Source: Minisyncoccota bacterium
GTDB taxonomy: Bacteria > Patescibacteriota > Minisyncoccia > Phycocordibacterales > JAACPR01
Length of the DNA stretch: 20,374 nucleotides
Direction of reading: 5' to 3'
Assembly (NCBI GenBank): GCA_032117135.1
Contig: JAULZV010000047.1
Location: forward strand, 1 to 20,374
Part shown: positions 865-20,374 of the stretch, piece after piece
Layout of the letters: each line of letters opens with the position of its first letter
Numbering within the stretch: position 1 is the first letter of the stretch
Program-made: the position numbers and the translations under genes
The notes under the pieces: generated by a model
Seen by the model: the letters and a program-made list of their open reading frames with translations, nothing else
Told to the model about the DNA's origin: nothing
Databases searched by the model: none

Positions 865-1980
865 TTATTTCGCAAACCATTGCTTGCGGAATGCCAATCG
901 TTTTCCTCCATCCGGCAAAGCCTCAGTTACTTCAATTTCCAGTGGAAATGGAGTAAGATTTGGCTCTGTAAGTTCCGGAGGATTTGTTTCAAACACTCCT
1001 CGAGCAATGAGTTCTGACCCTTTCGGCGTCAAAACTGGCCTCACCAGGACTATCTTACCGTCTGAGGTCTTCTTTGACTTCAGCTCACCCACGGTCAGGC
1101 GAGGCACCTCGCCCTCGCCCTGGAAACGGTGGATTTCCGTGCTTCCAGGCTTAACCTTGTGTTCTGCAGGGTCGTATGGAGTAAAGACGATTCCTTCATC
1201 TCCAGGAATGGCCTCTCCCGCCACTTTCGCGGCGGTTTCGGCTTCAGCCTTGGCTTTGGCCTCTTCGGCTTCTACCAACAGAAGCCGGAGCTTCTTGGCT
1301 TCCGCAATTTGCTCCTCCGTCTCTTCTCGCTGTTGTTTGAGGAGAGTGGCTGCTTGAGCTGCTGCCTCTTCTTTTTCTTTCAAGAGAGTGGCGGCTTGAG
1401 CCTCTGCCTTCTCTTTTTCGTCCAAAGCCTTTTGACGTTCTTCTTCGAAGACCTCTTGTAGGGCCTTGATTTTGACCTCGAGGTGCGAGTTAAGCGCATC
1501 TTCTTTTGAGGAGGAGTCCTTTGGACCCCACACAATGAATCCAATCACGATAACGGAAGCCACAAGGGCTCCGCCACCAATGATCGTTGCCCAGAACCAA
1601 GGGGATTTCTTCCTTGGTTGTGGTGCTGTCACCACCGCTGGTTCTGGTGGCACTGGTGGAAGTGTGGGTGGGGGCACTGACCCCGTTGGAGCCGCGACTG
1701 GTGCCGGAGCAGGTGCCACGACTGGTGCTGGAGCAGGTGCTGCTGGAGCCGCGACTGGTGTTGAAGCAGCAGCGGGTACTGGCGCAACTGGAACGGGTGC
1801 TGCTGGAGCAGGTGCTGGAGCAGGTGCTGCTGGAGCCGCGACTGGTGTTGAAGCAGCAGCGGGTACTGGCGCAACTGGAACGGGTGCTGCTGGAGCCGAA
1901 ACGGCAACAGGTGCTGCCGGTGTGGGCATGACAGGCACTGTTGCTGGTGCTGGTGTTGGTGCTGGTGTTAGTGTTGACAT
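865..1980 (-). CDS. Pro/Ala-rich single-pass membrane protein. Order of regions: PA-repeat N-region, one TM helix, coiled-coil, C-terminal globular domain.
   Basis: ORF of 371 aa. The N-terminus has about 110 aa of PAPAPV low complexity carrying an internal 29-aa duplication. The TM helix reads WFWATIIGGGALVASVIVIGFIVWG. A Glu/Lys/Ala-rich coiled-coil follows. This region is far more GC-rich than the surrounding sequence. Confidence 0.6.
   Translation of the reverse strand: MSTLTPAPTPAPATVPVMPTPAAPVAVSAPAAPVPVAPVPAAASTPVAAPAAPAPAPAPAAPVPVAPVPAAASTPVAAPAAPAPAPVVAPAPAPVAAPTGSVPPPTLPPVPPEPAVVTAPQPRKKSPWFWATIIGGGALVASVIVIGFIVWGPKDSSSKEDALNSHLEVKIKALQEVFEEERQKALDEKEKAEAQAATLLKEKEEAAAQAATLLKQQREETEEQIAEAKKLRLLLVEAEEAKAKAEAETAAKVAGEAIPGDEGIVFTPYDPAEHKVKPGSTEIHRFQGEGEVPRLTVGELKSKKTSDGKIVLVRPVLTPKGSELIARGVFETNPPELTEPNLTPFPLEIEVTEALPDGGKRLAFRKQWFAK
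1714..1887. repeat. Roughly 87-bp tandem duplication inside the PA-rich gene (copies at 1714-1800 and 1801-1887)
   Basis: Identical 60-bp blocks at 1741-1800 and 1828-1887, plus similar GCTGGAGCAGGTGC lead-ins. Confidence 0.7.
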
Positions 1981-2997: not shown

Positions 2998-3642
2998 TTA
3001 CAGTGTCCGTACAAAATCAGCTTCAACTACCCAACGATCATCTTTTTGTCCAAACGTATCACACGTTGAAATCGTGAGCATTCTCCCTGCACTCGCAAAT
3101 TGCACCAGCGCATCATCTTCGTTAGCTAGTTTGACGGTTCGAACAGTGTATACATAGGTTTGACCCCCTGAAACAAGTTTGATTTCGTCACCTGCTACGA
3201 GCTTTTCGAGACCATTAAATGTCTTATATGCTGCATTATTAACAACCTTCCAATTGGTACTGTGACCAAACAAAAACATATTACCGTTTTGAAGAGTTCC
3301 TGATCCAGGATAATACACGGCCCCACGAGTAAGTGCCGCATCAAGGGTTGCAACATCTACTGCTCGAGGTACGACAATAGAAGTTGAAACACCAATTTTG
3401 TCGATCATAATCCGCTCTGGAAGTAGATTAGTATCAGCTTCAGATATATCATCAGACGGCCCTCCTATCTGATCTTGAACAGAAAAATCAGGTGAAATAT
3501 TGGCAGTAGGAGCAGTATCTGGAGCAGAAGAAGTACTCTTGAATTGCTCAGGTACAAAACCCAAAAGCGCCAAAATGGCGTATGTTCCTGCAAATATAAA
3601 CAAAGTCATTGCACCAATATGTATATAGTCTTTTGTTTTCAT
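2998..3642 (-). CDS. Sortase (transpeptidase) with an N-terminal membrane anchor
   Basis: Contains the TLxTC-type active-site motif (LTISTCD), the conserved His in LFGHSTN, and a C-terminal Arg. It has an N-terminal TM helix. The track ORF begins at a TTG at 3657. The ATG at 3642 is preferred because a TATACT box sits 6 nt upstream of it. Confidence 0.8.
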   Translation of the reverse strand: MKTKDYIHIGAMTLFIFAGTYAILALLGFVPEQFKSTSSAPDTAPTANISPDFSVQDQIGGPSDDISEADTNLLPERIMIDKIGVSTSIVVPRAVDVATLDAALTRGAVYYPGSGTLQNGNMFLFGHSTNWKVVNNAAYKTFNGLEKLVAGDEIKLVSGGQTYVYTVRTVKLANEDDALVQFASAGRMLTISTCDTFGQKDDRWVVEADFVRTL

Positions 3643-3744
3643 TTCACTAGTATACAATAAATATAGAATTTGACAATACTTTGTATCTATTGTATTTAAA
3701 TTTAACTTGTATTATCCCCTCTTTTCTATTATCATAGTGATATT

Positions 3745-11473: not shown

Positions 11474-11490
11474 AGAGCACGTATCAATTG

Positions 11491-11562
11491 AGGCGTGGGC
11501 GGGAATCGAACCCGCGCATGGAGGATTTGCAATCCACAGCGTTACCACTTCGCCACCACGCC
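11491..11562 (-). tRNA. tRNA-Cys (anticodon GCA), no encoded CCA, discriminator U73
   Basis: The reverse complement reads ggcgtgg-tg-gcg..cgc-t-gtgga-ttGCAaa-tcctc-...-gcggg-ttcgatt-cccgc-ccacgcc-t. The acceptor stem is perfect. There is one mismatch in the anticodon stem. Confidence 0.8.
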
Positions 11563-11635
11563 TTTGGTTCGTGTACTATATCATTTTATTTCTCAAGAGA
11601 AAACTCCTTAGATCCCCTACGCCCTTACCATATCC

Positions 11636-11663
11636 TTGGAAAATAAAATTTTTCTGATATGAT
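11636..11663 (+). promoter_or_regulatory. Candidate promoter TTGGAA-N16-TATGAT driving tRNA-Leu(TAG)
   Basis: ttggaa at 11636-11641 and tatgat at 11658-11663. The tRNA 5' end lies at 11674. Confidence 0.35.
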
Positions 11664-11673
11664 GTCTTCACAT

Positions 11674-11755
11674 GCCGAGGTGGCGAAATTGGTATACGCA
11701 CTTGCCTTAGGAGCAAGCGGGGTGACCCATGGAGGTTCAAGTCCTCTCCTCGGCA
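11674..11755 (+). tRNA. tRNA-Leu (anticodon TAG), type II
   Basis: Acceptor stem gccgagg pairs with cctcggc. Anticodon stem cttgc/gcaag closes the loop ctTAGga. It has a 13-nt variable arm and TpsiC loop ttcaagt. No CCA is encoded. Confidence 0.85.
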
Positions 11756-11810
11756 CATTGCACAGTTCGACACATTCTCATGTATGTCTAGCTTTGTACC
11801 CATTTTTCTT

Positions 11811-11839
11811 TTGAAATTTGGTATGAGGTTTGATACTAT
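11811..11839 (+). promoter_or_regulatory. Candidate promoter TTGAAA-N17-TACTAT driving tRNA-Leu(TAA)
   Basis: ttgaaa at 11811-11816, a 17-nt spacer, tactat at 11834-11839. The tRNA starts at 11850. Confidence 0.45.
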
Positions 11840-11849
11840 GAGTACACTT

Positions 11850-11931
11850 GCTCGGGTGGCGGAATTGGTATACGCGCACGACTTAAAATCGTGTTCCATC
11901 TGGAATATGGGTTCGACCCCCATCCCGAGCA
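11850..11931 (+). tRNA. tRNA-Leu (anticodon TAA), type II
   Basis: Acceptor stem gctcggg pairs with cccgagc. Anticodon stem cacga/tcgtg closes the loop ctTAAaa. It has the same architecture as the neighbouring Leu tRNA, with TpsiC loop ttcgacc. Confidence 0.85.
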
Positions 11932-11987
11932 CAGGAGCGTTATCAGTATCACCACACAGCTCCGTACGCGCACATACAGTATCTTAT

Positions 11988-12063
11988 GCACCCATAGCTC
12001 AGTCGGTAGAGCAGTCGCCTCTTAAGCGAACGGTCGTAGGTTCGAATCCTACTGGGTGCACCA
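11988..12063 (+). tRNA. tRNA-Lys (anticodon CTT), CCA encoded
   Basis: Acceptor stem gcaccca pairs with tgggtgc. D stem gctc/gagc. Anticodon loop ctCTTaa. T arm gtagg-ttcgaat-cctac. The 3' end reads a-cca. Confidence 0.85.
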
Positions 12064-12250: not shown

Positions 12251-13276
12251 ATGGACCTTAGCAGAACAGATTCGATAGACGGAAGAAGTGTCTTCCAGCA
12301 AATGCTTTATACTGGATTCATCATCTTGATGTGTCTAGCTGTATTTCTCATCACCTCAATGGTGCAATTCACCTTGATTGCATGTGCCGATCTTGACACA
12401 GCTATCGCATTTATACGCAGCTTTTGGTTTTTGATCCTGAGTATTGCTGCAACGGGAACATTCCTTTTTTTGATCAGAAAGGAAATCTGGATTCAAAATA
12501 CAGAAGGAAACACGATGGTTTATGCGATCGACAACTTTATCTCTCATAATTTGACCGAGGAGCAAGGTAATGGAACCAAGTTTATCTTATTCGGTCCTGG
12601 CGCCTCCCTCAAACCATGGTGGATATTACCAGTCGGAACAGTAGAGGTTGAACGAGAACCGACCTTCCCTTACAATAAAACAATAACCGCCCAAGCACAG
12701 GACGGAAATAAGGTTGAGATCAGAGTGAGTTACTCTTGGAGAGCACATGCACCTCGTCTTTCTCTCTATCTTCAAGGAATCAAGGAAGGTGAAAAACAGC
12801 CGGATGAAGCTCTGCAATTTATAGGAGATACACTTGGTCAATTTGTGGAAGAAATATGTGCACAAGCTCAAGTCATTGAGCAAATTCTCACATATCAATC
12901 CGCATTTACCGACAACCTCACAGGAAGATTGAGTCAGTTCGCAAAAAGACAATACGGCATCGAAATTGTAGGTGTCGCGTTTGTTGAATGCGACGAACCT
13001 GCAGCCGTCATCGCTCAACGTAATCAAGAATCGATCAACAAATCTATTCAGAGAACAGCGAGAATATACATGGATGATTTTGGAATGTCAGGAGACGCTG
13101 CAGTAAAAGTTGCGTCTGCTCAAGCTGGCATTGCTGGTATTTCGGTGAACGACAATGTATTCACTCTTAACGTGGGCAACCCTGCCTTACTAGACCTAAT
13201 CAATGGTCTTGATCCAGCAACCAAACAAATCCTAATTCAAGCGTTCGCAAGACTCGGAAACAGAAACAGGAGATAA
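12251..13276 (+). CDS. Membrane protein with a probable SPFH/band-7 (stomatin/prohibitin-like) domain
   Basis: Two N-terminal TM helices. By-eye SPFH-like segments are KTITAQAQDGNKVEIRVSYSWR and YGIEIVGVAFVECDEPAAVIAQRNQESINKSIQRTAR. GC content is higher than in the core genes. Confidence 0.45.
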   Translation: MDLSRTDSIDGRSVFQQMLYTGFIILMCLAVFLITSMVQFTLIACADLDTAIAFIRSFWFLILSIAATGTFLFLIRKEIWIQNTEGNTMVYAIDNFISHNLTEEQGNGTKFILFGPGASLKPWWILPVGTVEVEREPTFPYNKTITAQAQDGNKVEIRVSYSWRAHAPRLSLYLQGIKEGEKQPDEALQFIGDTLGQFVEEICAQAQVIEQILTYQSAFTDNLTGRLSQFAKRQYGIEIVGVAFVECDEPAAVIAQRNQESINKSIQRTARIYMDDFGMSGDAAVKVASAQAGIAGISVNDNVFTLNVGNPALLDLINGLDPATKQILIQAFARLGNRNRR

Positions 13277-13279
13277 GAA

Positions 13280-13828
13280 ATGAAACAAAACGAAAGTGTT
13301 AATAAAGGGATAGGTATCGCCATCATCACTGTCACTGTTCTCCTCATACTCGGAGTCATCCTCTCGCTCACCAGCAAAGGATACTCATCAGACAGTGAGG
13401 ACGAAGTGCCAGCGACAGCCAAAAACCTCCCCGCAAAACTCTACCTCCGGATGGATTCTGAAGGTGGAAAGTTCAAAGTAGGACCAGGAGAGCACACGGT
13501 CAGCTCCAGAAATGGATTGATCGTATGCTTCCGAAGGGTCCTCGTGGAGGATAAAGGAGTGGTTGGAAACACTCTTATCGAGGCGGGCGCTGCCCTCTTC
13601 GGAGAGTCGGTCGGTGCACTTGCTCCAAGAGAGCATACGCACCTCATTGCCTTTGATCCCAAGACTCTTGAAGGCACCTATATTGGTGCTCAAGAGGGTC
13701 GTGAAGGTGTAGAAGGCAAAGTCAAGCTCAGTCCGCACCCAAGCGGATTGGGATATGCGATCGTATTCTACCAAGGATACGGCCCAGGAGCTCCCCGCCA
13801 CGCAAGTGGCACGCTCCTGACATATTAA
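13280..13828 (+). CDS. Hypothetical membrane-anchored protein: one TM helix plus a ~140-aa beta-rich soluble domain. Possibly an NfeD-like partner of the SPFH protein.
   Basis: The TM segment reads IGIAIITVTVLLILGVILSL. It is coupled to the preceding gene by a 3-nt gap. The NfeD idea is inference only. Confidence 0.45.
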   Translation: MKQNESVNKGIGIAIITVTVLLILGVILSLTSKGYSSDSEDEVPATAKNLPAKLYLRMDSEGGKFKVGPGEHTVSSRNGLIVCFRRVLVEDKGVVGNTLIEAGAALFGESVGALAPREHTHLIAFDPKTLEGTYIGAQEGREGVEGKVKLSPHPSGLGYAIVFYQGYGPGAPRHASGTLLTY

Positions 13829-13837
13829 CCTCAAACC

Positions 13838-13875
13838 AATCCCGTTTGCACGCATGCGTGTAGGCGGGATTTTCT
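13838..13875 (+). terminator. Intrinsic terminator after the 13280-13828 gene
   Basis: Stem aatcccg pairs with cgggatt. The loop contains a perfect 12-nt palindrome, cacgcatgcgtg. It is followed by ttttctt. Confidence 0.55.
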
Positions 13876-13949: not shown

Positions 13950-14216
13950 TTATCTCAAGATCTGAGGAACATCTGACCCCTTGACTCCGAGTGTATTGAG
14001 TAGAATTTCGATAATAGTAAACACAGATATCATAATGAGTAAACCAACTATCCCCCACAACATGTGCTCCTGACCAACTCGACGGACTTCGGGCTTGTCT
14101 GCACCTCTGATGTAATCAAAGATTCCGTAGACAAATATCACAAGCGCGACAGCAAACAAAACTTGAATGATTGGATTGACTATTGCACTTACTGCTTTTT
14201 CGAGCTGATCTTGCAT
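13950..14216 (-). CDS. Small two-helix membrane protein, paralog A of a VirB2/TrbC-like (pilin-like) family
   Basis: 88 aa. Helix 1 reads VLFAVALVIFVYGIFDYIRG. The charged loop reads ADKPEVRRVGQEH. Helix 2 reads MLWGIVGLLIMISVFTIIEILLNTLG. It shares the family motif [LY]M[LI][WY]G[IV][IV].L[FL][VI]M.S[VL][WF] with paralogs B-D. Confidence 0.55.
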   Translation of the reverse strand: MQDQLEKAVSAIVNPIIQVLFAVALVIFVYGIFDYIRGADKPEVRRVGQEHMLWGIVGLLIMISVFTIIEILLNTLGVKGSDVPQILR

Positions 14217-14224
14217 CAGATATA

Positions 14225-14605
14225 TTAGTTAGCTCTATATCCAGCTGATGGAACTGATGGAACTGATGGTGGAAGATTAGTGTTGCGGTTTGTACCAAGA
14301 ATTGTATCACTCAAGATGGCCACAAGACCCCATACGCTTGTCATCACAAACAATGCGATAATCCCCCAAATCATTAATGTTTTTGCGTCATCCTTTTTAT
14401 CACTAAAAAGATATCTCATAATTCCCCACAGGAACGCAAGTAAAGCAAGACCAATCAAAATCGGAATGATTCGAGCAACAAGACCGTCAATTTTGTTGAG
14501 TAATGAAAACAATCCACTTGTATCAACACCCGAGTTTGCAAACACAAAAAACGGAGTCAACAGACCCACGACCGCTACTGAAATTTTACTTAAAACTTTT
14601 TTCAT
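14225..14605 (-). CDS. Paralog B of the same pilin-like family, with a signal peptide
   Basis: 126 aa. Signal peptide MKKVLSKISVAVVGLLTPFFVFA/NSG. Helix 1 IIPILIGLALLAFLWGIMRYLFS. Helix 2 LMIWGIIALFVMTSVWGLVAILSDTILG. Confidence 0.55.
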   Translation of the reverse strand: MKKVLSKISVAVVGLLTPFFVFANSGVDTSGLFSLLNKIDGLVARIIPILIGLALLAFLWGIMRYLFSDKKDDAKTLMIWGIIALFVMTSVWGLVAILSDTILGTNRNTNLPPSVPSVPSAGYRAN

Positions 14606-14633
14606 ATTTTTGTTACTATTTTTAATACTTAGT

Positions 14634-14643
14634 ATTATATCAC
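14634..14643 (-). promoter_or_regulatory. Extended -10 box (TGaTATAAT) in the 118-nt gap between paralogs C and B, suggesting an internal promoter
   Basis: The reverse complement of 14634-14642 reads tgatataat. The ATG of paralog B lies about 29 nt downstream. Confidence 0.4.
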
Positions 14644-14723
14644 TTTATAAAATTTAAACAGAGTTTTGTGTGGATTACCGCAATCAAAAACACACAACAC
14701 TTCCACATAAATTATGTACCACT

Positions 14724-15131
14724 TTAAAATTGAGGAATCCCTACATCAGTATGCCCAATCGTACTCGCAAGAATTGCAACAATCGTCCACACCGACATCA
14801 TAACAAAGAGTCCGATAACACCCCACAACATGAGCTTGCGTCCATCCGAGCGTGCAGTGTCACTTTCTTGACCTTTATACATATATTTCATCATTCCGTA
14901 CAAAAAAACCAACACCGTTAGAGCCACAATTATTGTTACGGCGTACCGACTTCCTTTGAGGATCAGGTCTGCTACAAACTCTTGAAACGTCGCATTGTCA
15001 CGTAACCCATCAGTATTCAACACAGGTTGTGCAGTACTACCAGTTGAAAAATCCCCCGATACATCTTGCGGAATAGTGTCTTGAGCATACACGGGTGGAA
15101 CTATTTTTTGTACTATATACTGTAATATCAT
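14724..15131 (-). CDS. Paralog C of the pilin-like family
   Basis: 135 aa. The N-terminal region is signal-like (IVPPVYA/QD). Helix 1 reads AVTIIVALTVLVFLYGMMKYMYKG. Helix 2 reads LMLWGVIGLFVMMSVWTIVAILASTIG. Confidence 0.55.
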   Translation of the reverse strand: MILQYIVQKIVPPVYAQDTIPQDVSGDFSTGSTAQPVLNTDGLRDNATFQEFVADLILKGSRYAVTIIVALTVLVFLYGMMKYMYKGQESDTARSDGRKLMLWGVIGLFVMMSVWTIVAILASTIGHTDVGIPQF

Positions 15132-15139
15132 ATAAAATA

Positions 15140-15505
15140 TTATATCATTTCTTGTGGCAGATTATTATCAAAAATATCCTCAATGTCTTGGACTGGTGCG
15201 AATTGTTGTTCAGGAGATACTGGTGCATCCGGAGAGTATTCAACATCTCCAATATATGATGGACCGAGCAAGCTCTGCATTAAATGAATAATTCCCCATA
15301 GACTTGTCATAACAAAGAGAGTAAGAATTCCATATAACATATAACTTCGTCCCTCTGTACGTAATTTATCATTGGAAGATCCGAAGAAGACAAATTTTAC
15401 TATTCCCCACAAAAAGGCAAGGAGTGCAAAACCGATTATAGTATAGATAACTCGATCAATCAGAGAAAGGAATTTTTGAAATAAATTGAAAATATTTTGA
15501 GACAT
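15140..15505 (-). CDS. Paralog D of the pilin-like family, with an acidic C-terminal tail
   Basis: 121 aa. Helix 1 reads IYTIIGFALLAFLWGIVKFVFFG. Helix 2 reads YMLYGILTLFVMTSLWGIIHLMQSLLG. It is separated from paralog E by 3 nt. Confidence 0.55.
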   Translation of the reverse strand: MSQNIFNLFQKFLSLIDRVIYTIIGFALLAFLWGIVKFVFFGSSNDKLRTEGRSYMLYGILTLFVMTSLWGIIHLMQSLLGPSYIGDVEYSPDAPVSPEQQFAPVQDIEDIFDNNLPQEMI

Positions 15506-15508
15506 ATG

Positions 15509-15919
15509 CTAGACCATTAGACTTGAATCCCCACTTGGAATATTAACATCGCCTTCGTATGATTCGGTTTCGACACCACGGATTGTTGATTCGATAATAT
15601 TTGCAATAACTTGAGCACCGAGAAGTACTAGAGCCCCGATAATAGTCCAAAATAATGTTTCTCTTGCAGTTTTGAGTTGTTCAGGTCGCCCTTGCGCCAC
15701 AACAAACATAAATCCCGCATAGACAAGTGCCAAGGTCACTGCTACTGCACCAAGCTGCACAAGCACTTTAAAGAAGGCATTGAGTACTTGAGCTACAGAC
15801 CTAAATGATGTAGGACTTTCTAATTGAATATTAATTGTATCTCCCGCATGAGTAGTAAGCGGAACTCCTATAATTAAGAGTGTGCATGTTGCTAATATAA
15901 ATGGAATTATTTTTGACAT
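15509..15919 (-). CDS. Paralog E (divergent) of the pilin-like family, with a signal peptide
   Basis: 136 aa. Signal peptide MSKIIPFILATCTLLIIGVPLTTHA/GD. The mature part reads ...LNAFFKVLVQLGAVAVTLALVYAGFMFVVAQGRPEQLKTARETLFWTIIGALVLLGAQVIANIIESTIRG. The helix-loop-helix pattern, including LNAFF and LLGAQ, recalls TrbC-type pilins. Confidence 0.5.
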   Translation of the reverse strand: MSKIIPFILATCTLLIIGVPLTTHAGDTINIQLESPTSFRSVAQVLNAFFKVLVQLGAVAVTLALVYAGFMFVVAQGRPEQLKTARETLFWTIIGALVLLGAQVIANIIESTIRGVETESYEGDVNIPSGDSSLMV

Positions 15920-15923
15920 GATG

Positions 15924-16346
15924 TTATTTTACTATATCGATAAAGAATGCTTTAGCACCTAATTTTTGAAGTAACTCCCCGATTGTAATAAATGCCATAA
16001 ACATAATTAAGAACCCGACAACAACTCTCTTAAAAATATTTTTGGCTTTTTGAATTTGTGTAGGATTACCCACTGCAGTAATCAGAAGTACCCCCGCGTA
16101 CATGAACATAAATGCCACAATAAAGGTGGCGAACATAAATATCCAGTTCATCAGATTTTGAATCAAATTCATCAAGTGTACAAAATCACATGGATCTTGT
16201 CCCTGACCACCACAGGTAATGAGAGGGTTCCTATCACTTGTTCCTGGACCTGTCGGCTGTCCCATTTGACCCTGAGCCAAGGCAAGGCCTGGAATACATA
16301 TTAGAGTAAGCAGTACCGTAGCGAAGATGTGTTTTAAATTATTCAT
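15924..16346 (-). CDS. Paralog F (divergent) of the pilin-like family, with a signal peptide and two Cys residues in the mature N-region
   Basis: 140 aa. Signal peptide MNNLKHIFATVLLTLICIPGLALA/QGQ. The Gly/Gln-rich region contains C..C. The two helices are IFMFATFIVAFMFMYAGVLLITAVG and VVVGFLIMFMAFITIGELL. Its start overlaps the stop of the upstream gene by 8 nt. Confidence 0.5.
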   Translation of the reverse strand: MNNLKHIFATVLLTLICIPGLALAQGQMGQPTGPGTSDRNPLITCGGQGQDPCDFVHLMNLIQNLMNWIFMFATFIVAFMFMYAGVLLITAVGNPTQIQKAKNIFKRVVVGFLIMFMAFITIGELLQKLGAKAFFIDIVK

Positions 16347-17664
16347 TGAGTGTAGCGGTTAATTTTTCTTGAGCACGAGTAATGGCGACACTGATTTCGT
16401 ATTGTCCTGACACAACAGTCTCGATCAATTCTTTGATAATAGCACTCGATTGTCTCGAATCTGGTTCAAGCACCCCTCGTGCAATAATAGCAGATCTATT
16501 GATAATCGACTGATATGGACTAGAGACCTCGGTTGTTGCAAGCATATCTCTGCGAACCGACGCCACTTGAAGCGCTGTTGAGTATGCCTGTTGAGATGGT
16601 CTTGAAGTGAGCTTAGCTGCCATCGTAATAGCTCCTGACACATTGCGTGTCGCTCGAGGAATCATAAAGAGTTGCATTGCTCCGTATGTTACCTTCCGAG
16701 AACTATTTTGAGATTGGGGTACGAGCGCCATATCAAAATTAAGGTTTGGATTAATGCGTTTGATTGTTGGCAATTCGGATGCATATCCAATATAAAAGGC
16801 AAGATCGCCTGCAACAAACATAGTCTGAGACTTTGATAATGAACGATTCCAAGAATATACTGTTTTGGTTGGGTTTGAAAATTGTACAAAGAAGTTAGTC
16901 GCGGCATATGCCGGGTTAAGTGTGAAATTAAGATTATCATTAAATAATGATCGATACCGCTGAGCACCTCCTTGTTGCATGTCAACATATCGTTCAATTA
17001 CAGGATTACCAGCCTGTAGAGTAAGCATCCAAAAAATATCTTTGGCATTGTTAATATTATCAAACGATCCTAGTGCGATTGTACTCTTAAAAATATTGAA
17101 GGATGAATCTTTTTGTGTCATCGTAGGTGTAATTGCAAGTAATTCAGTCCATGTCTCTGGAGGCCGTGCAAAGCCACTGTTATTGAGCATATCTTTGTTG
17201 TAATACATCACCAGCGGATCAACCAAAAACGGAAATCCTAGAATACCTGTCTCAGTTACCAACAAGCTTCCTTCATCAAGAAATAAATCTTGATATGTTC
17301 TCAGTGGAAATGATTCGAATGGAATTTCTTGCATTCTTCTTTGATTAGAGATGATTTGTTTTTCGTTCAACAAAACTAAATCCGGTCCAGCCCCCTCTGC
17401 AAGTGCCTTGAGAAGTTCATCTTCAAATGTATCTTTATTTTTTTCTACATATACAAGACTAGTCAGACTCTCATCTTCAAGACTAAGCTCATTAAGAATC
17501 GTTGTAAAAGTTGATTGAGGAATTGTCCCCCATAATACAACTGTGCCGAGTGAAGAATTATTATTTCCACCACCCCGATAGGCGGTAAACAAAATGACAG
17601 CCGCAACAATCGCAATACCGGCTACTGCAAAAATAATCGCCTGAACAATATTAATGTTTTTCAT
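16339..17664 (-). CDS. Membrane-anchored ABC-type extracellular solute-binding-fold protein (SBP family 1-like) with no cognate transporter genes nearby
   Basis: 441 aa. N-terminal TM helix IIFAVAGIAIVAAVILF. The SBP-like pattern includes GTVVLWGT, GPDLVLLNEKQ, MYYNKDML and PETWTELL. No permease or ATPase ORFs lie in the operon. Confidence 0.6.
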   Translation of the reverse strand: MKNINIVQAIIFAVAGIAIVAAVILFTAYRGGGNNNSSLGTVVLWGTIPQSTFTTILNELSLEDESLTSLVYVEKNKDTFEDELLKALAEGAGPDLVLLNEKQIISNQRRMQEIPFESFPLRTYQDLFLDEGSLLVTETGILGFPFLVDPLVMYYNKDMLNNSGFARPPETWTELLAITPTMTQKDSSFNIFKSTIALGSFDNINNAKDIFWMLTLQAGNPVIERYVDMQQGGAQRYRSLFNDNLNFTLNPAYAATNFFVQFSNPTKTVYSWNRSLSKSQTMFVAGDLAFYIGYASELPTIKRINPNLNFDMALVPQSQNSSRKVTYGAMQLFMIPRATRNVSGAITMAAKLTSRPSQQAYSTALQVASVRRDMLATTEVSSPYQSIINRSAIIARGVLEPDSRQSSAIIKELIETVVSGQYEISVAITRAQEKLTATLNE

Positions 17665-17665
17665 A

Positions 17666-18232
17666 CTATATATTTGATTGCATTATAAAACCGTAATGAT
17701 GTTCCCCTGCTTGAATATCTTTTACAAAAGCAAGACCTACTTTTTGAAATAATTCGAGCGAACGATCTCGAGAAACTACACTTTGTGGTGTGGGTCCTAA
17801 TCCTCCAAATGATTCGGACCAATCGACCACAAGAAGTTGACCGCCCTTTTTGAGTATTCGTTTTACTTCAAGAGCGAATTTTTGTTTATCATCAATTTGA
17901 AAAAGTGTATTGGCAACAACAGCTCGATCAATACTCATATCCTGAAGACCAATACCATTTGCATCATCAAGATCATCCCACAAAGCAGTTATGTGAGTAA
18001 TTTGTTTTTGAAGACATTCGTTTGCAACTTTATCGACGAGGTTTTTTTGAACATCCAGAGCAAATATTTTGCCGGTGCCTGCCATTATTTTTGAAATTTC
18101 AAACGTGTACGCTCCAATACCACAACCTAAATCCGCAACGACCATATTGGGTTGCAAATCAAATTGTGGAACAATTACAGATGGTGCGCTAAACATTGCT
18201 TGAATTATAGTACAGTCGAGCAAATGATGCAC
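17666..18232 (-). CDS. Class I SAM-dependent methyltransferase
   Basis: Motif I VADLGCGIGAYT, an acidic motif II (FALDV), and motif post I KGGQLLVVDW. The start at 18232 is a GTG. An alternative ATG at 18196 has a perfect TATAAT 7 nt upstream on the minus strand (plus-strand 18204-18209). Confidence 0.8.
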   Translation of the reverse strand: MHHLLDCTIIQAMFSAPSVIVPQFDLQPNMVVADLGCGIGAYTFEISKIMAGTGKIFALDVQKNLVDKVANECLQKQITHITALWDDLDDANGIGLQDMSIDRAVVANTLFQIDDKQKFALEVKRILKKGGQLLVVDWSESFGGLGPTPQSVVSRDRSLELFQKVGLAFVKDIQAGEHHYGFIMQSNI

Positions 18233-18267: not shown

Positions 18268-18357
18268 AAAATCCGTACGATACAGATACTCTCCGAGTGC
18301 CCGTCCTCGGCCTGTGGCCTGCGAGTCACTCTCCGAGTATCTGTATCGTACGGATTT
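18268..18357. repeat. GC-rich structured element, copy 2: the same conserved core closed by a perfect 23-bp stem. It sits where a terminator for gyrA would be.
   Basis: aaatccgtacgatacagatactc at 18269-18291 pairs perfectly with gagtatctgtatcgtacggattt at 18335-18357. The core at 18292-18334 reads tccgagtgcccgtcctcggcctgtggcctgcgagtcactctcc. Confidence 0.6.
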
Positions 18358-18376: not shown

Positions 18377-20374
18377 TTAGAAACACACAATAGAAGCAAT
18401 CTCGTCACCTTCTCGAAGTTTCATAACTCGCACACCTTGTGTTTGTCGTCCAAGCTTTGGAATTTCGGAGATCGAAACTCGAATTACTTGTCCTTTTTTG
18501 GACATTGCAACAACTTCTTCGTTTTCGTCAGTTACCACTTTACCAGCAACGAGAGCACCTACCTTAGGAGTAATACTTGCAGTTTTGATTCCTGAACCAC
18601 CTCTTTTTTGAACTTTGTATTCTTTCATGGTTGTTTGTTTACCATATCCTTTAGATGAGAAAGTAAAGAGTCTTGGATTTGGAGAATCCTTAGAGACGAC
18701 ACCAGCACTGACAACTACGTCATCTTTTTTGAGCAAAAATCCTCGAACACCTGCAGCTGTTCGACCCATTTGTCTAATATCTGACTCTTTAAACCTAATA
18801 GATTGTCCTTTTTGACTTGCAAGAATAATGTCATCACCCTTGGTCACAAACATCGCTTCGATGAGACTATCGTCATCCTTGAGACCAATTGCAATAATAC
18901 CGTTACGCCGCACATCATAAAATCCTCGTGCGTCTACTTTTTTGGCATTACCTTCACGCGTCACCATCACCACAGAGAGGTCGTCTGATTTTTTGATTTC
19001 TTTGGGCATTGGGAGTACTGATGTTACTCGTTCATCTTGACCAATTGATAAGAAGTTTGCGATAGACTTACCACGCGTTGCTCGCTTGCCTTCAGGAATA
19101 TCATAAGTACGTAGTTTGAACACCTTACCCTTATCAGTGAAGAATAAAAGTTCGCTATGATTAGTAGTATTGAGAAATGTCTGTACAAAATCTTCTTCTT
19201 TGGTGTTGAGATCAACTACCCCAACTCCCCCGCGTTTTTGTTGTTTATACTCAGTTGGATCGGTTCGCTTGATATATCCCCCTTTGGTAAGAACAAGAAC
19301 TGTTTGATCATCAGGAATAAGATCTTCTTGAGAAAGATTTTTGACACCATGTTTGACGACTTTGGTTCGACGCGCATCGCCAAATTTTTCTTGAATTTCG
19401 GCAAACTCTTTTTTGATGAGTGCCTTCATCTTTTTTTCACTTTCGAGAAGTTCTCGAAGTTCTTTGATCAATAGCTGTACCGCTCTGAGTTCATCCTCAA
19501 CTTTTTTACGTTCAAGTCCAGCAAGCTTTTGGAGTCGCATCTCAAGAATCGCATCAGCTTGGCGCTGTGAAAACTTGAATTGCTTCATCAAATTAACTTG
19601 TGCAGTCGGTGTATCTTTGGATGCTCTAATACATTTGATTACTTCATCAATATGATCAAGCGCCTTTTTGAGACCAATGAGAATATGCTCTCGATCAAGA
19701 GCTTTGTTGAGGTCAAATTGTGTCCTTCGGGTCACAACCTCAAATCGGTGTCGAATGAATTCTTTGAGTGCCGCCTTAAGCGAAAGCGTCTGAGGCACAC
19801 CGTCGACAAGCGCAACCATATTAAAATGGAATGTATCTTCAAGTTGAGTGTGTTTGTAAATATAATTGAGAACATTTTGAGGGTGAGCAGATGGCTTGAT
19901 ATCAATGACTACCCGAATATCATCAGTAGACTCGTCACGAATATCTTTGATACCTTCGAGTTTTTTGTCTTTGACAAGATCCGCAATCTTAAGAATCATT
20001 TCTGACTTATTTACTCGATATGGGATTGAGGTAATCACAATTTGAAAGGCACCTGATTTGAGTTCGACAATCTCAGCCTCACCTCGACACACTACTCCTC
20101 CTCGTCCACTGACATAGGCTTGATGGATGTCTTTTTCATTAAAAATAACTCCTCCCATCGGGTAGTCTGGACCTTTGACAAATTGAAACAAATCCTCGCT
20201 GGTTGCATTAGGATTATCAATCAAATACACGATAGCATCCATCAACTCACCGAGGTTATGTGGTGGAATATTAGAAGCCATACCTACCGCAATACCCAAG
20301 GTACCATTGAGAAGAAGTGCAGGCACAGCCGTCGGAAGCACTATCGGTTCGCGAGTTCGAGAGTCATACGTAGG
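18377..20374 (-). CDS. gyrA: DNA gyrase subunit A. The N-terminal ~150 aa lie beyond the window end.
   Basis: The frame stays open to position 20374 (…PTYDSRTREPIVLPTAVPALLLNGTLGIAVGMASNIPPHNL), matching the GyrA region that follows the catalytic Tyr. The C-terminal beta-pinwheel domain carries a GyrA-box-like QQKRGGVG. The track start is an internal GTG. Confidence 0.9.
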   Translation of the reverse strand, partial: PTYDSRTREPIVLPTAVPALLLNGTLGIAVGMASNIPPHNLGELMDAIVYLIDNPNATSEDLFQFVKGPDYPMGGVIFNEKDIHQAYVSGRGGVVCRGEAEIVELKSGAFQIVITSIPYRVNKSEMILKIADLVKDKKLEGIKDIRDESTDDIRVVIDIKPSAHPQNVLNYIYKHTQLEDTFHFNMVALVDGVPQTLSLKAALKEFIRHRFEVVTRRTQFDLNKALDREHILIGLKKALDHIDEVIKCIRASKDTPTAQVNLMKQFKFSQRQADAILEMRLQKLAGLERKKVEDELRAVQLLIKELRELLESEKKMKALIKKEFAEIQEKFGDARRTKVVKHGVKNLSQEDLIPDDQTVLVLTKGGYIKRTDPTEYKQQKRGGVGVVDLNTKEEDFVQTFLNTTNHSELLFFTDKGKVFKLRTYDIPEGKRATRGKSIANFLSIGQDERVTSVLPMPKEIKKSDDLSVVMVTREGNAKKVDARGFYDVRRNGIIAIGLKDDDSLIEAMFVTKGDDIILASQKGQSIRFKESDIRQMGRTAAGVRGFLLKKDDVVVSAGVVSKDSPNPRLFTFSSKGYGKQTTMKEYKVQKRGGSGIKTASITPKVGALVAGKVVTDENEEVVAMSKKGQVIRVSISEIPKLGRQTQGVRVMKLREGDEIASIVCF

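Follow-up and report, generated by a model that had tools for sequence, protein, structure and literature searches.

We analyzed a 20,374-nucleotide stretch of genomic DNA from a Minisyncoccota bacterium (all of contig JAULZV010000047.1; the whole stretch is called the window below), in which eight co-directional open reading frames (ORFs) are located on the minus strand downstream of gyrA. These ORFs encode a methyltransferase, a solute-binding protein (SBP) and six small two-helix proteins resembling the pilins of type IV secretion systems (T4SSs). The six are labeled pilins A to F in the order of transcription; an earlier interpretation of the letters alone, referred to here as the sequence-only reading, had labeled them by ascending coordinates, and its A is F here. 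Overall, we consider it fairly probable that the operon is the Paceibacteria form of the VirB2-like pilin array of Patescibacteria, serving a T4SS that is encoded elsewhere. At least 568 species genomes were found to encode a relative of the SBP (scan of one genome per species), and the counts of downstream genes given below are based on the 80 best SBP relatives, scored with hidden Markov models (HMMs) built from the first six loci. The genes and signals of the unit, with lengths in amino acids (aa), are as follows:

20341..18377, minus strand: gyrA, cut by the window end
18269..18357, minus strand: long hairpin in the spacer from the gyrA stop (18377) to the methyltransferase gene, with arms at 18269-18299 and 18327-18357
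18209..18204, minus strand: TATAAT, a -10-like hexamer 7 nt 5' of ATG 18196, read directly from the sequence
18196..17666, minus strand: methyltransferase, 176 aa from ATG 18196 (longest possible ORF from GTG 18232)
17664..16339, minus strand: binding protein (SBP), 441 aa
16346..15924, minus strand: pilin A, 140 aa
15919..15509, minus strand: pilin B, 136 aa
15505..15140, minus strand: pilin C, 121 aa
15131..14724, minus strand: pilin D, 135 aa
14642..14634, minus strand: TGATATAAT, an extended -10 box 28 nt before the ATG of pilin E, within the 118-nt gap between D and E
14605..14225, minus strand: pilin E, 126 aa
14216..13950, minus strand: pilin F, 88 aa
13938..13897, minus strand: intrinsic-terminator-like hairpin directly 3' of pilin F (free energy, dG, -29.8 kcal/mol; z -6.3), followed by the U-rich UUUAGUUGU

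The methyltransferase gene, the SBP gene and the six pilin genes form one transcription unit that is flanked by hairpins. When the intergenic distances were re-measured from the methyltransferase gene to pilin F, they were +1, -8, +4, +3, +8, +118 and +8 nt, identical to the packing reported by the sequence-only reading (gaps of -8 to +8 nt and a single gap of 118 nt), with the end of the SBP gene and the start of pilin A overlapping by 8 nt. The hairpin between gyrA and the methyltransferase gene, detected by inverted-repeat search and RNA folding, has 31-nt arms that are 90% complementary (dG -63.7 kcal/mol, z -6.7) and is followed by UUUUGU; it looks terminator-like and looks like the upstream boundary of the unit. 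The TATAAT hexamer is a candidate for the operon promoter, in which case the mRNA may be leaderless. The extended -10 box previously noticed in the 118-nt gap was indeed found there as the perfect box TGATATAAT, a candidate for an internal promoter that would serve E and F, the last two pilin genes. In related loci, the largest intergenic gap of the array precedes the last two genes in 53 of 67 cases (median 106 nt), in agreement with the 118-nt gap and the -10 box of the window. RNA folding of this gap gave no significant structure (z = +0.7), and no known RNA was found by Rfam either in the gap or in the spacer between gyrA and the methyltransferase gene, five tRNAs being the sole matches in the window. 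A promoter scan listed 15 sigma-70-like sites compared to a shuffled expectation of 14.5 and is therefore not counted as evidence; neither of the two -10 boxes read by eye was among them.

Family, architecture and positional classes of the pilins

All six small proteins show two hydrophobic segments by hydropathy, joined by a loop with three to four Lys/Arg residues. Scored as whole proteins against PF18895 (T4SS_pilin; gathering cut-off 26.6 bits), they reached 27.1 bits (A), 33.4 (B), 17.6 (C), 30.3 (D), 29.7 (E) and 35.5 (F), and the sub-threshold protein C is nevertheless 37-38% identical to D and E. Among homologs of the middle genes (class c) to F from six loci, 23 of 24 matched PF18895 (E <= 0.01); all 30 pilin B orthologs matched this family, and 26 of the 30 also matched TrbC/VirB2 (PF04956; E <= 0.01, best E 1.7e-9). 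The sequence-only reading had called these proteins VirB2/TrbC-like T4SS pilins and had proposed the two profile comparisons, and the call stands, with five of the six above the PF18895 cut-off and the two-helix architecture in all six. In the window itself no protein reaches the 27.9-bit cut-off of PF04956, the best being B with 22.1 bits (and a sub-threshold 21.3 bits for CagC); by the Pfam rule, the window pilins are a related family and not members, and B is the most VirB2/TrbC-like of the six. With six tandem genes of 23-44% identity, the array falls within the published definition of Patescibacteria VirB2 arrays (2-11 genes of low mutual identity, either in tandem or with one gene between them; PMC12102498). 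Identities as holin, PspC, DUF membrane families, DctQ or MatE were considered and rejected, the matches being scattered, sub-threshold and attributable to hydrophobic-helix bias.

The six proteins differ at their N-termini. A hydrophobic segment with an AxA-like cleavage site is present in A, B and E, D has only a weak and short signal-like segment, and C and F have none; of the four cleavable signal peptides that had been claimed (proteins of 126, 135, 136 and 140 aa), those of the 126-, 136- and 140-aa proteins were recovered and that of the 135-aa protein was weak only. The AlphaFold2 model of pilin B shows a signal helix followed by a helical hairpin (residues 42-76 and 79-121). Class A carries a Cys pair just before helix 1 (kept in 6/6), C has an acidic C-terminal tail, and F is a minimal two-helix pilin without signal peptide. 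Compared with VirB2, TrbC and TraA (PF04956), the window proteins are alike in being small, in having a signal peptide in some members, in their two helices joined by a short basic loop and in the profile similarity of class B. They differ in their sub-cut-off PF04956 scores, in having given no match to a solved pilin in sequence and fold searches, in belonging to a single-membrane host, in having six subunits in place of one major pilin and in having no adjacent VirB gene.

We compared the six proteins with one another and across loci. Pilins C, D, E and F are close paralogs with 29-44% mutual identity, whereas A and B gave 23-28% BLAST identity to other pilins or no match; similarly, the helix-2 motif described by the sequence-only reading is present at 13-14 of 14 positions in C-F (13 of 14 in C) and at only 5-6 of 14 in A and B. 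The description of the six as clear paralogs with a shared helix-2 motif is therefore retained for C-F and abandoned for A and B, which are separate subfamilies. Across 68 loci, the best BLAST match lay in the same class for 98% of B, 81% of the last (F), 77% of the next-to-last (E) and 74% of the A proteins. Pilin E of the window found the next-to-last gene as its best match in 53 of 67 other loci, and pilin F the last gene in 61 of 67. Best matches of class A that fall outside the class mostly go to B, many of them in loci without an A gene, and the middle c genes, which mix with the next-to-last class in this test, look like lineage-specific duplicates. In each of the 65 evaluable loci, B comes after A, where A is present, and is followed by c...c; of the 63 loci with at least four pilin ORFs, 11 have four, 25 have five, 20 have six and 7 have seven. 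In addition, interspecies orthologs are 50-73% identical (comparison with locus L001), versus 23-44% for paralogs within the window; pilin D, for example, is 69% identical to gene 4 of L001. By these comparisons, the pilins form differentiated, positionally conserved classes, namely A, B, a c/E group and F.

This pattern bears on the proposal that the tandem copies are interchangeable surface variants for different hosts or for escape from recognition, as proposed for the VirB2 paralogs of Bartonella and Anaplasma. Such a variation cassette would be consistent with the low identity between copies, which is similar to the published array average of 25% (PMC12102498), with a copy number ranging from 4 to 7 and with the host-strain versatility suggested by the authors of that study. 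However, since most classes are positional orthologs, the comparison argues against it: the class assignments hold over 68 loci, the A-B-c..c order has no exception among the evaluable loci, orthologs from different species are closer than paralogs of the same genome, and lineage-specific duplicates are suspected among the middle c genes only. We regard a variation cassette as very improbable.

In some lineages, class A carries large N-terminal extracellular modules (subtilase S8, three TIG, FN3-like, FIVAR) ahead of a C-terminal two-helix pilin domain (fused ORFs L063:4722-6347, L109:1018-3120, L087:7314-9527, L018:7258-8418 and L112:261-1496). Other unusual forms were observed as well. Double-length c-type ORFs (L054:7917-8945, L094:7290-8354 and L096:7272-8333) reached 208-228 bits with the HMM for c-F, roughly double the usual value, and from these scores are probably two fused pilin domains. 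Pilin-domain ORFs with long C-terminal extensions, 330-640 aa in total, were found in L107:8218-10140, L105:2284-3678, L098:5052-6047 and L132:5074-6390; three are in the last position and that of L132 is of class B, and the extensions have no Pfam match. Some lineages also have a second cluster of 3-4 pilin genes 2-3 kb past the first, beyond two convergent genes (L144:10564-12461, L151:10600-12023 and L137:4816-6340), the final gene of which encodes a protein of 258-272 aa with an N-terminal PF18895 domain. No T4SS genes were found beside the second clusters of L144 and L151, where only unannotated ORFs, an amidase and IF-2 are present.

In a reading without a filament, which we regard as rather unlikely, the six would be membrane-resident T4SS channel parts or two-helix anchors for extracellular domains. 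Class A and some last-position members are joined to large domains, as membrane anchors would be. Gram-positive-type T4SSs are generally without pili, and a T4SS pilus has not been observed in Patescibacteria (PMC12102498, PMC12857230); in Gram-negative systems the pilin is required for transfer even without a pilus (PMC12857230). The same reading would suit the similarity to the Mbov_0395 family (NCBIfam NF045849), two-helix pilin-like proteins of Mycoplasma integrative and conjugative elements (ICEs) that belong to the T4SSs of bacteria with a single membrane; weak matches were obtained for five of the six proteins of the window, every score being below cut-off (best 32 bits versus 40), and the window has no ICE context. 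In contrast, the pilin B orthologs match the family of TrbC/VirB2 pilus subunits, the archaeal Ced system makes VirB2-like pili on single-membrane cells (cited in PMC12102498), and in co-cultures of Paceibacteria with methanogens T4SS pilins were among the five most highly expressed signal-peptide genes of unknown function, which suits an abundant structural subunit (PMC10936435). In Yanofskyibacterium, as listed in its expression table, large PF18895 proteins stand beside VirB6-like genes, an arrangement unlike the operon of the window; the table yielded no expression values for the operon type of the window.

The binding protein, the methyltransferase and their linkage to the pilins

The SBP belongs to the solute-binding family 1 (PF13416, 65.3 bits; PF01547, 51.0 bits). 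Its AlphaFold2 model (pLDDT 90.3) shows an N-terminal transmembrane (TM) helix (residues 6-27), a disordered Gly/Asn-rich linker (27-38) and a MalE-like two-lobe body, and the N-terminus MKNINIVQAIIF... is a plain TM anchor without a prepilin cleavage motif. The Foldseek comparison that had been suggested for this protein, together with HMM searches, returned oligosaccharide-binding proteins as top matches (5ci5, 6wpn, 4qsd and 4r9g; 15-19% identity, TM-scores 0.62-0.68), in line with a sugar-binding, MalE-like fold. Across 29 orthologs (38-72% identity), 36 columns are invariant, including several Trp, Tyr, Asn and Asp. The protein resembles the MalE/UgpB family-1 SBPs in its two Pfam domains and two-lobe model, and differs from them in its low identity, its N-terminal TM anchor, the lack of a nearby permease or ATPase and the pilin genes that follow. 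A search of the window, and of five related loci to a distance of 10 kb, found no ATP-binding cassette (ABC) transporter partner (BPD_transp_1 or ABC_tran), which upholds the earlier description of a membrane-anchored SBP-fold protein without such a partner.

The methyltransferase matched Methyltransf_31 (52.4 bits) as well as Methyltransf_11 and Methyltransf_25 in Pfam, and the motif DLGCGIG for binding of S-adenosylmethionine (SAM), of the GxGxG type, is visible in its sequence; it is a generic class I SAM-dependent enzyme. No NCBIfam equivalog reached its cut-off for this protein, and the nearest solved structures are uncharacterized methyltransferases (3dh0 and 3i9f) and phosphoethanolamine N-methyltransferases. 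Since the orthologs begin with MFS.P and are 175-178 aa long, the gene most likely starts at ATG 18196 and not at GTG 18232, where the sequence-only reading had placed the start of this otherwise correctly called gene.

The order gyrA, methyltransferase, MalE-like SBP and pilins A, B, c...c is conserved across Paceibacteria. Homologs of the SBP are abundant and, where named, belong to Parcubacteria lineages; the 80 best loci come from Campbell-, Wolfe-, Nomura-, Adler-, Taylor-, Zambryski- and Kaiserbacteria and other Paceibacterota. In five loci with SBP identities down to 39%, gyrA, the methyltransferase gene, the SBP gene and 5-7 pilin genes follow one another in the same order, and the flanks are syntenic as well, with S1 and lactamase_B on one side and RbfA, IF-2, DUF4446, an aminotransferase, a protease and ClpB on the other. 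At least four pilin ORFs directly follow the SBP gene in 63 of the 65 loci with enough downstream sequence, the methyltransferase gene is directly upstream of it in 70 of 79 loci, and gyrA is upstream in 68 of 74. In the reverse search, in which metagenome contigs were searched with the pilin-B profile, the SBP gene was directly upstream in all 37 evaluable loci; four exceptions flagged by the script were ORF-overlap artifacts and were counted as SBP-preceded. The flanks 3' of the array vary among lineages, and the SBP and pilin block is constant. In the literature searched, we found no report linking a solute-binding protein or a methyltransferase to pilin arrays, nor one of positional classes.

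These data can also be explained by synteny only. The array would then serve a T4SS, the SBP would be the ordinary receptor of an ABC importer with a distant permease and ATPase, the methyltransferase would be a housekeeping enzyme, and the shared operon would reflect genome compactness. The order from S1/gyrA to IF-2/ClpB is kept in relatives down to about 40% SBP identity, the adjacency of gyrA is about as conserved as that of the methyltransferase gene, the SBP has a normal and confidently modeled MalE-like fold, and the pilin array of Southlakia epibionticum, to which we return below, has no adjoining SBP or methyltransferase gene. Family-1 SBP genes normally adjoin permease genes, as in malEFG and ugpBAEC, which counts against this explanation, as does the lack of a permease within 10 kb in the five loci. 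In addition, the end of the SBP gene runs into the start of pilin A in the window, the SBP-pilin pairing holds in 63/65 loci in one direction and 37/37 in reverse, and the downstream flanks vary by lineage while the SBP and pilin block does not. Synteny only is a possible explanation, if an unlikely one.

Motor genes, known arrays and the proposed role of the operon

No VirB4 or VirD4 was found in the 20-kb window, as the sequence-only reading had stated, and the proposed search of the flanking genome, run on relatives, found none within 10 kb of five related loci; virB6 and virB3 were likewise not found in the window or at these loci, so that the array does not stand beside virB4, virB6 or virB3 as a T4SS cluster would. 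Six genomes that carry the operon are listed in Table S1 of PMC12102498, and all six are assigned to the class Paceibacteria and are VirB4-positive:

GCA_001823875.1 (locus L004)
GCA_002401345.1 (loci L006 and L018)
GCA_001189155.1 (locus L057)
GCA_001774455.1 (locus L010)
GCA_001821295.1 (locus L040)
GCA_001824135.1 (locus L052)

Because VirB4 is not nearby and all six genomes are VirB4-positive, the motor is encoded elsewhere and is not absent; in Paceibacteria, virB4 is mostly located near dnaA and dnaN (PMC12102498). The T4SS gene set is split, with the pilin operon as a part detached from the rest, and the operon is not evidence for a motor-free system. The suggestion of the sequence-only reading that the locus may encode a distinct surface-filament system was not sustained, given these VirB4-positive genomes and the tandem arrays of diverged VirB2-like pilins, which have already been described as a hallmark of the T4SSs of Patescibacteria (PMC12102498, PMC10633639, PMC12857230).

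Tandem arrays of this kind were surveyed by Quinonero-Coronel et al. (2025; PMC12102498) in 3,035 genomes of Patescibacteria, using PF18895, PF04956 and further profiles; the 441 VirB2 arrays that they reported contain 2-11 genes each, with identities of 25% on average and 54% at most. Array presence was reported near virB4 (legend of Fig. S9), and arrays were most abundant in Microgenomatia and Saccharimonadia, not in Paceibacteria; the authors suggested that array variability may aid adaptation to different hosts (PMC12102498). In S. epibionticum, the T4SS cluster holds a series of essential pilins (Wang et al. 2023), and SEML1_0014-0019 are six tandem PF18895 genes, all of them essential (PMC12857230). 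That array and the window array are alike: in both, the chromosome of a Patescibacterium carries six tandem, co-directional and diverged PF18895 genes, encoding about 100-185 aa each, with no relaxase context. They differ in their surroundings: the S. epibionticum array lies inside a T4SS cluster beside VirB6-, PrgI- and VirB4-like genes, with no SBP or methyltransferase gene, whereas the window array is unlinked from virB4 and follows gyrA, the methyltransferase gene and the SBP gene in a housekeeping neighborhood. As the tandem VirB2-like array is already known, the window presents its Paceibacteria form; what is new, judged by the literature searched, is its detachment from virB4, its operon with an orphan MalE-like SBP (usually with a methyltransferase as well) and its fixed A/B/c/E/F classes.

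In the reading that we favor, that of a Paceibacteria pilin array serving a T4SS encoded elsewhere, the pilins would be inserted via Sec/YidC, like VirB2 and TraA, so that the two termini face outward and the basic loop is inside, and would be assembled by a monoderm-type T4SS located elsewhere on the chromosome (VirB4, VirB6, VirB3/PrgI and TrsD). The product would be a heteromeric pilus or a pilin-lined channel part that contacts the host cell. B would be the VirB2-like core subunit, E and F may receive extra transcription from the internal promoter, and A could be a display subunit, its extracellular N-terminus bearing a disulfide loop in the window and, in relatives, adhesin or enzyme domains. 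The weakest steps concern the SBP, which would stay on the epibiont's own membrane, bind a conserved saccharide and perhaps cooperate with the appendage, either in the capture of host material or as an assembly aid. That the SBP and the methyltransferase act with the pilins is something we only infer, and the methyltransferase is dispensable in about one-tenth of lineages.

Several observations weigh against parts of this reading. The link between the operon and VirB4 rests on homology and co-occurrence, without adjacency. Profile searches of the PDB with the pilins returned nothing, or designed TM hairpins and a G-protein-coupled receptor (GPCR) only, with no conjugative pilin among the matches, and a Foldseek search of the PDB with the pilin B model gave no match at E < 1 and no VirB2/TraA pilin; a bare helical hairpin carries little signal, which makes such sequence and fold searches uninformative, and the designed-hairpin and GPCR matches were dismissed as compositional bias. 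No T4SS pilus has so far been shown in Patescibacteria, where an uptake conduit from the host has been speculated (2025 review, PMC12857230). The methyltransferase gene is missing from 9 of 79 loci, and at one Parcubacteria locus (L045:4480-7326) the methyltransferase, the SBP and pilin A are followed by an unrelated multi-TM protein and MetRS, the other pilins being missing there. Finally, because the neighborhood (S1, gyrA ... RbfA, IF-2, ClpB) is syntenic across genomes, adjacency alone is no proof of shared function.

A further step would be to see the pilins and the tethered SBP as one device, a pilin-built passage or scaffold across the wall and surface layer by which a host-derived saccharide is captured and imported, as a bacterial, T4SS-derived counterpart of the archaeal bindosome or of Ced-type import, with the methyltransferase modifying a pilin or a lipid. 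We hold this to be improbable. The bindosome of Sulfolobus (Bas; PMC3047682) is an analogy in layout only: sugar-binding proteins are assembled there at the cell surface together with small pilin-like proteins, in a cell with a single membrane and an outer surface layer, and a sugar-type SBP is genetically tied to several such proteins. The pilin-like and binding proteins of Bas have class III (type IV pilin) signal peptides and a type IV pilus ATPase, while the SBP of the window has no prepilin motif and its small proteins are PF18895 and not type IV pilins; no homology with the window is claimed.

Window context and significance for Paceibacteria

The remaining genes of the window include ClpB, a sortase, a cysteine desulfurase-like aminotransferase, a short IF-2, RbfA and a tRNA cluster, at about 40% GC, and this content is typical of a chromosome from the CPR (candidate phyla radiation)/Patescibacteria. 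The other features observed are as follows:

308-676, both strands: short tandem repeat crossed by ORFs that overlap on opposite strands, with three copies of GTTTTAGTRTTTMTQ in the translation of the minus strand; possibly a surface protein rich in repeats, or else non-coding repeat DNA
about 1000-2000: GC-rich stretch, 57% GC versus about 39% for the remaining window
865-1980, minus strand: 371-aa protein encoded by this GC-rich stretch, with long Pro/Ala-rich repeats, one TM segment and a Glu/Lys/Ala-rich coiled-coil-like part, with no Pfam match
2998-3657, minus strand: sortase gene (PF04203, 66.8 bits), which fits a single-membrane cell with wall-anchored surface proteins
11490-12063: cluster of four tRNAs (Cys, Leu-TAG, Leu-TAA and Lys-CTT) between rbfA and the SPFH gene
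11576..11932: 118-aa ORF overlapping the Leu tRNA genes, probably not a real gene
12251-13828, plus strand: convergent pair downstream of the array, encoding membrane proteins of 341 aa (SPFH/Band_7) and 182 aa (of no family)
13838-13871: another hairpin, its stem 15 bp long, located 3' of the convergent 182-aa ORF (13280..13828)

The pair of SPFH and 182-aa genes is also present in the closest relatives (L001 and L002) and not in more distant ones. Each of the two convergent units thus has a terminator-like element of its own, the two elements being about 25 nt apart.

The role of Patescibacteria T4SSs has been called completely unknown in reviews (PMC11665869). The T4SS is essential in the sole Patescibacterium tested, and how auxotrophic epibionts take up nutrients from their hosts is an open question. 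In the Paceibacteria, the largest class, the pilin set is not a variation cassette but consists of differentiated subunits in a fixed combination, which suggests that they build a heteromeric structure. This set is encoded apart from the motor genes, in a housekeeping region and with promoter and terminator signals of its own. The conserved oligosaccharide-type SBP that invariably precedes the pilins, with no transporter partner nearby, provides a hypothesis that is testable through its ligand, partners and localization in cultured Paceibacteria, e.g., Minisyncoccus archaeiphilus. If the SBP proves to be a mere syntenic neighbor, the locus would still be a clean example of a known pilin array; if the pilins and the SBP were indeed one device, the essential T4SS of Patescibacteria would have a role in nutrient uptake.

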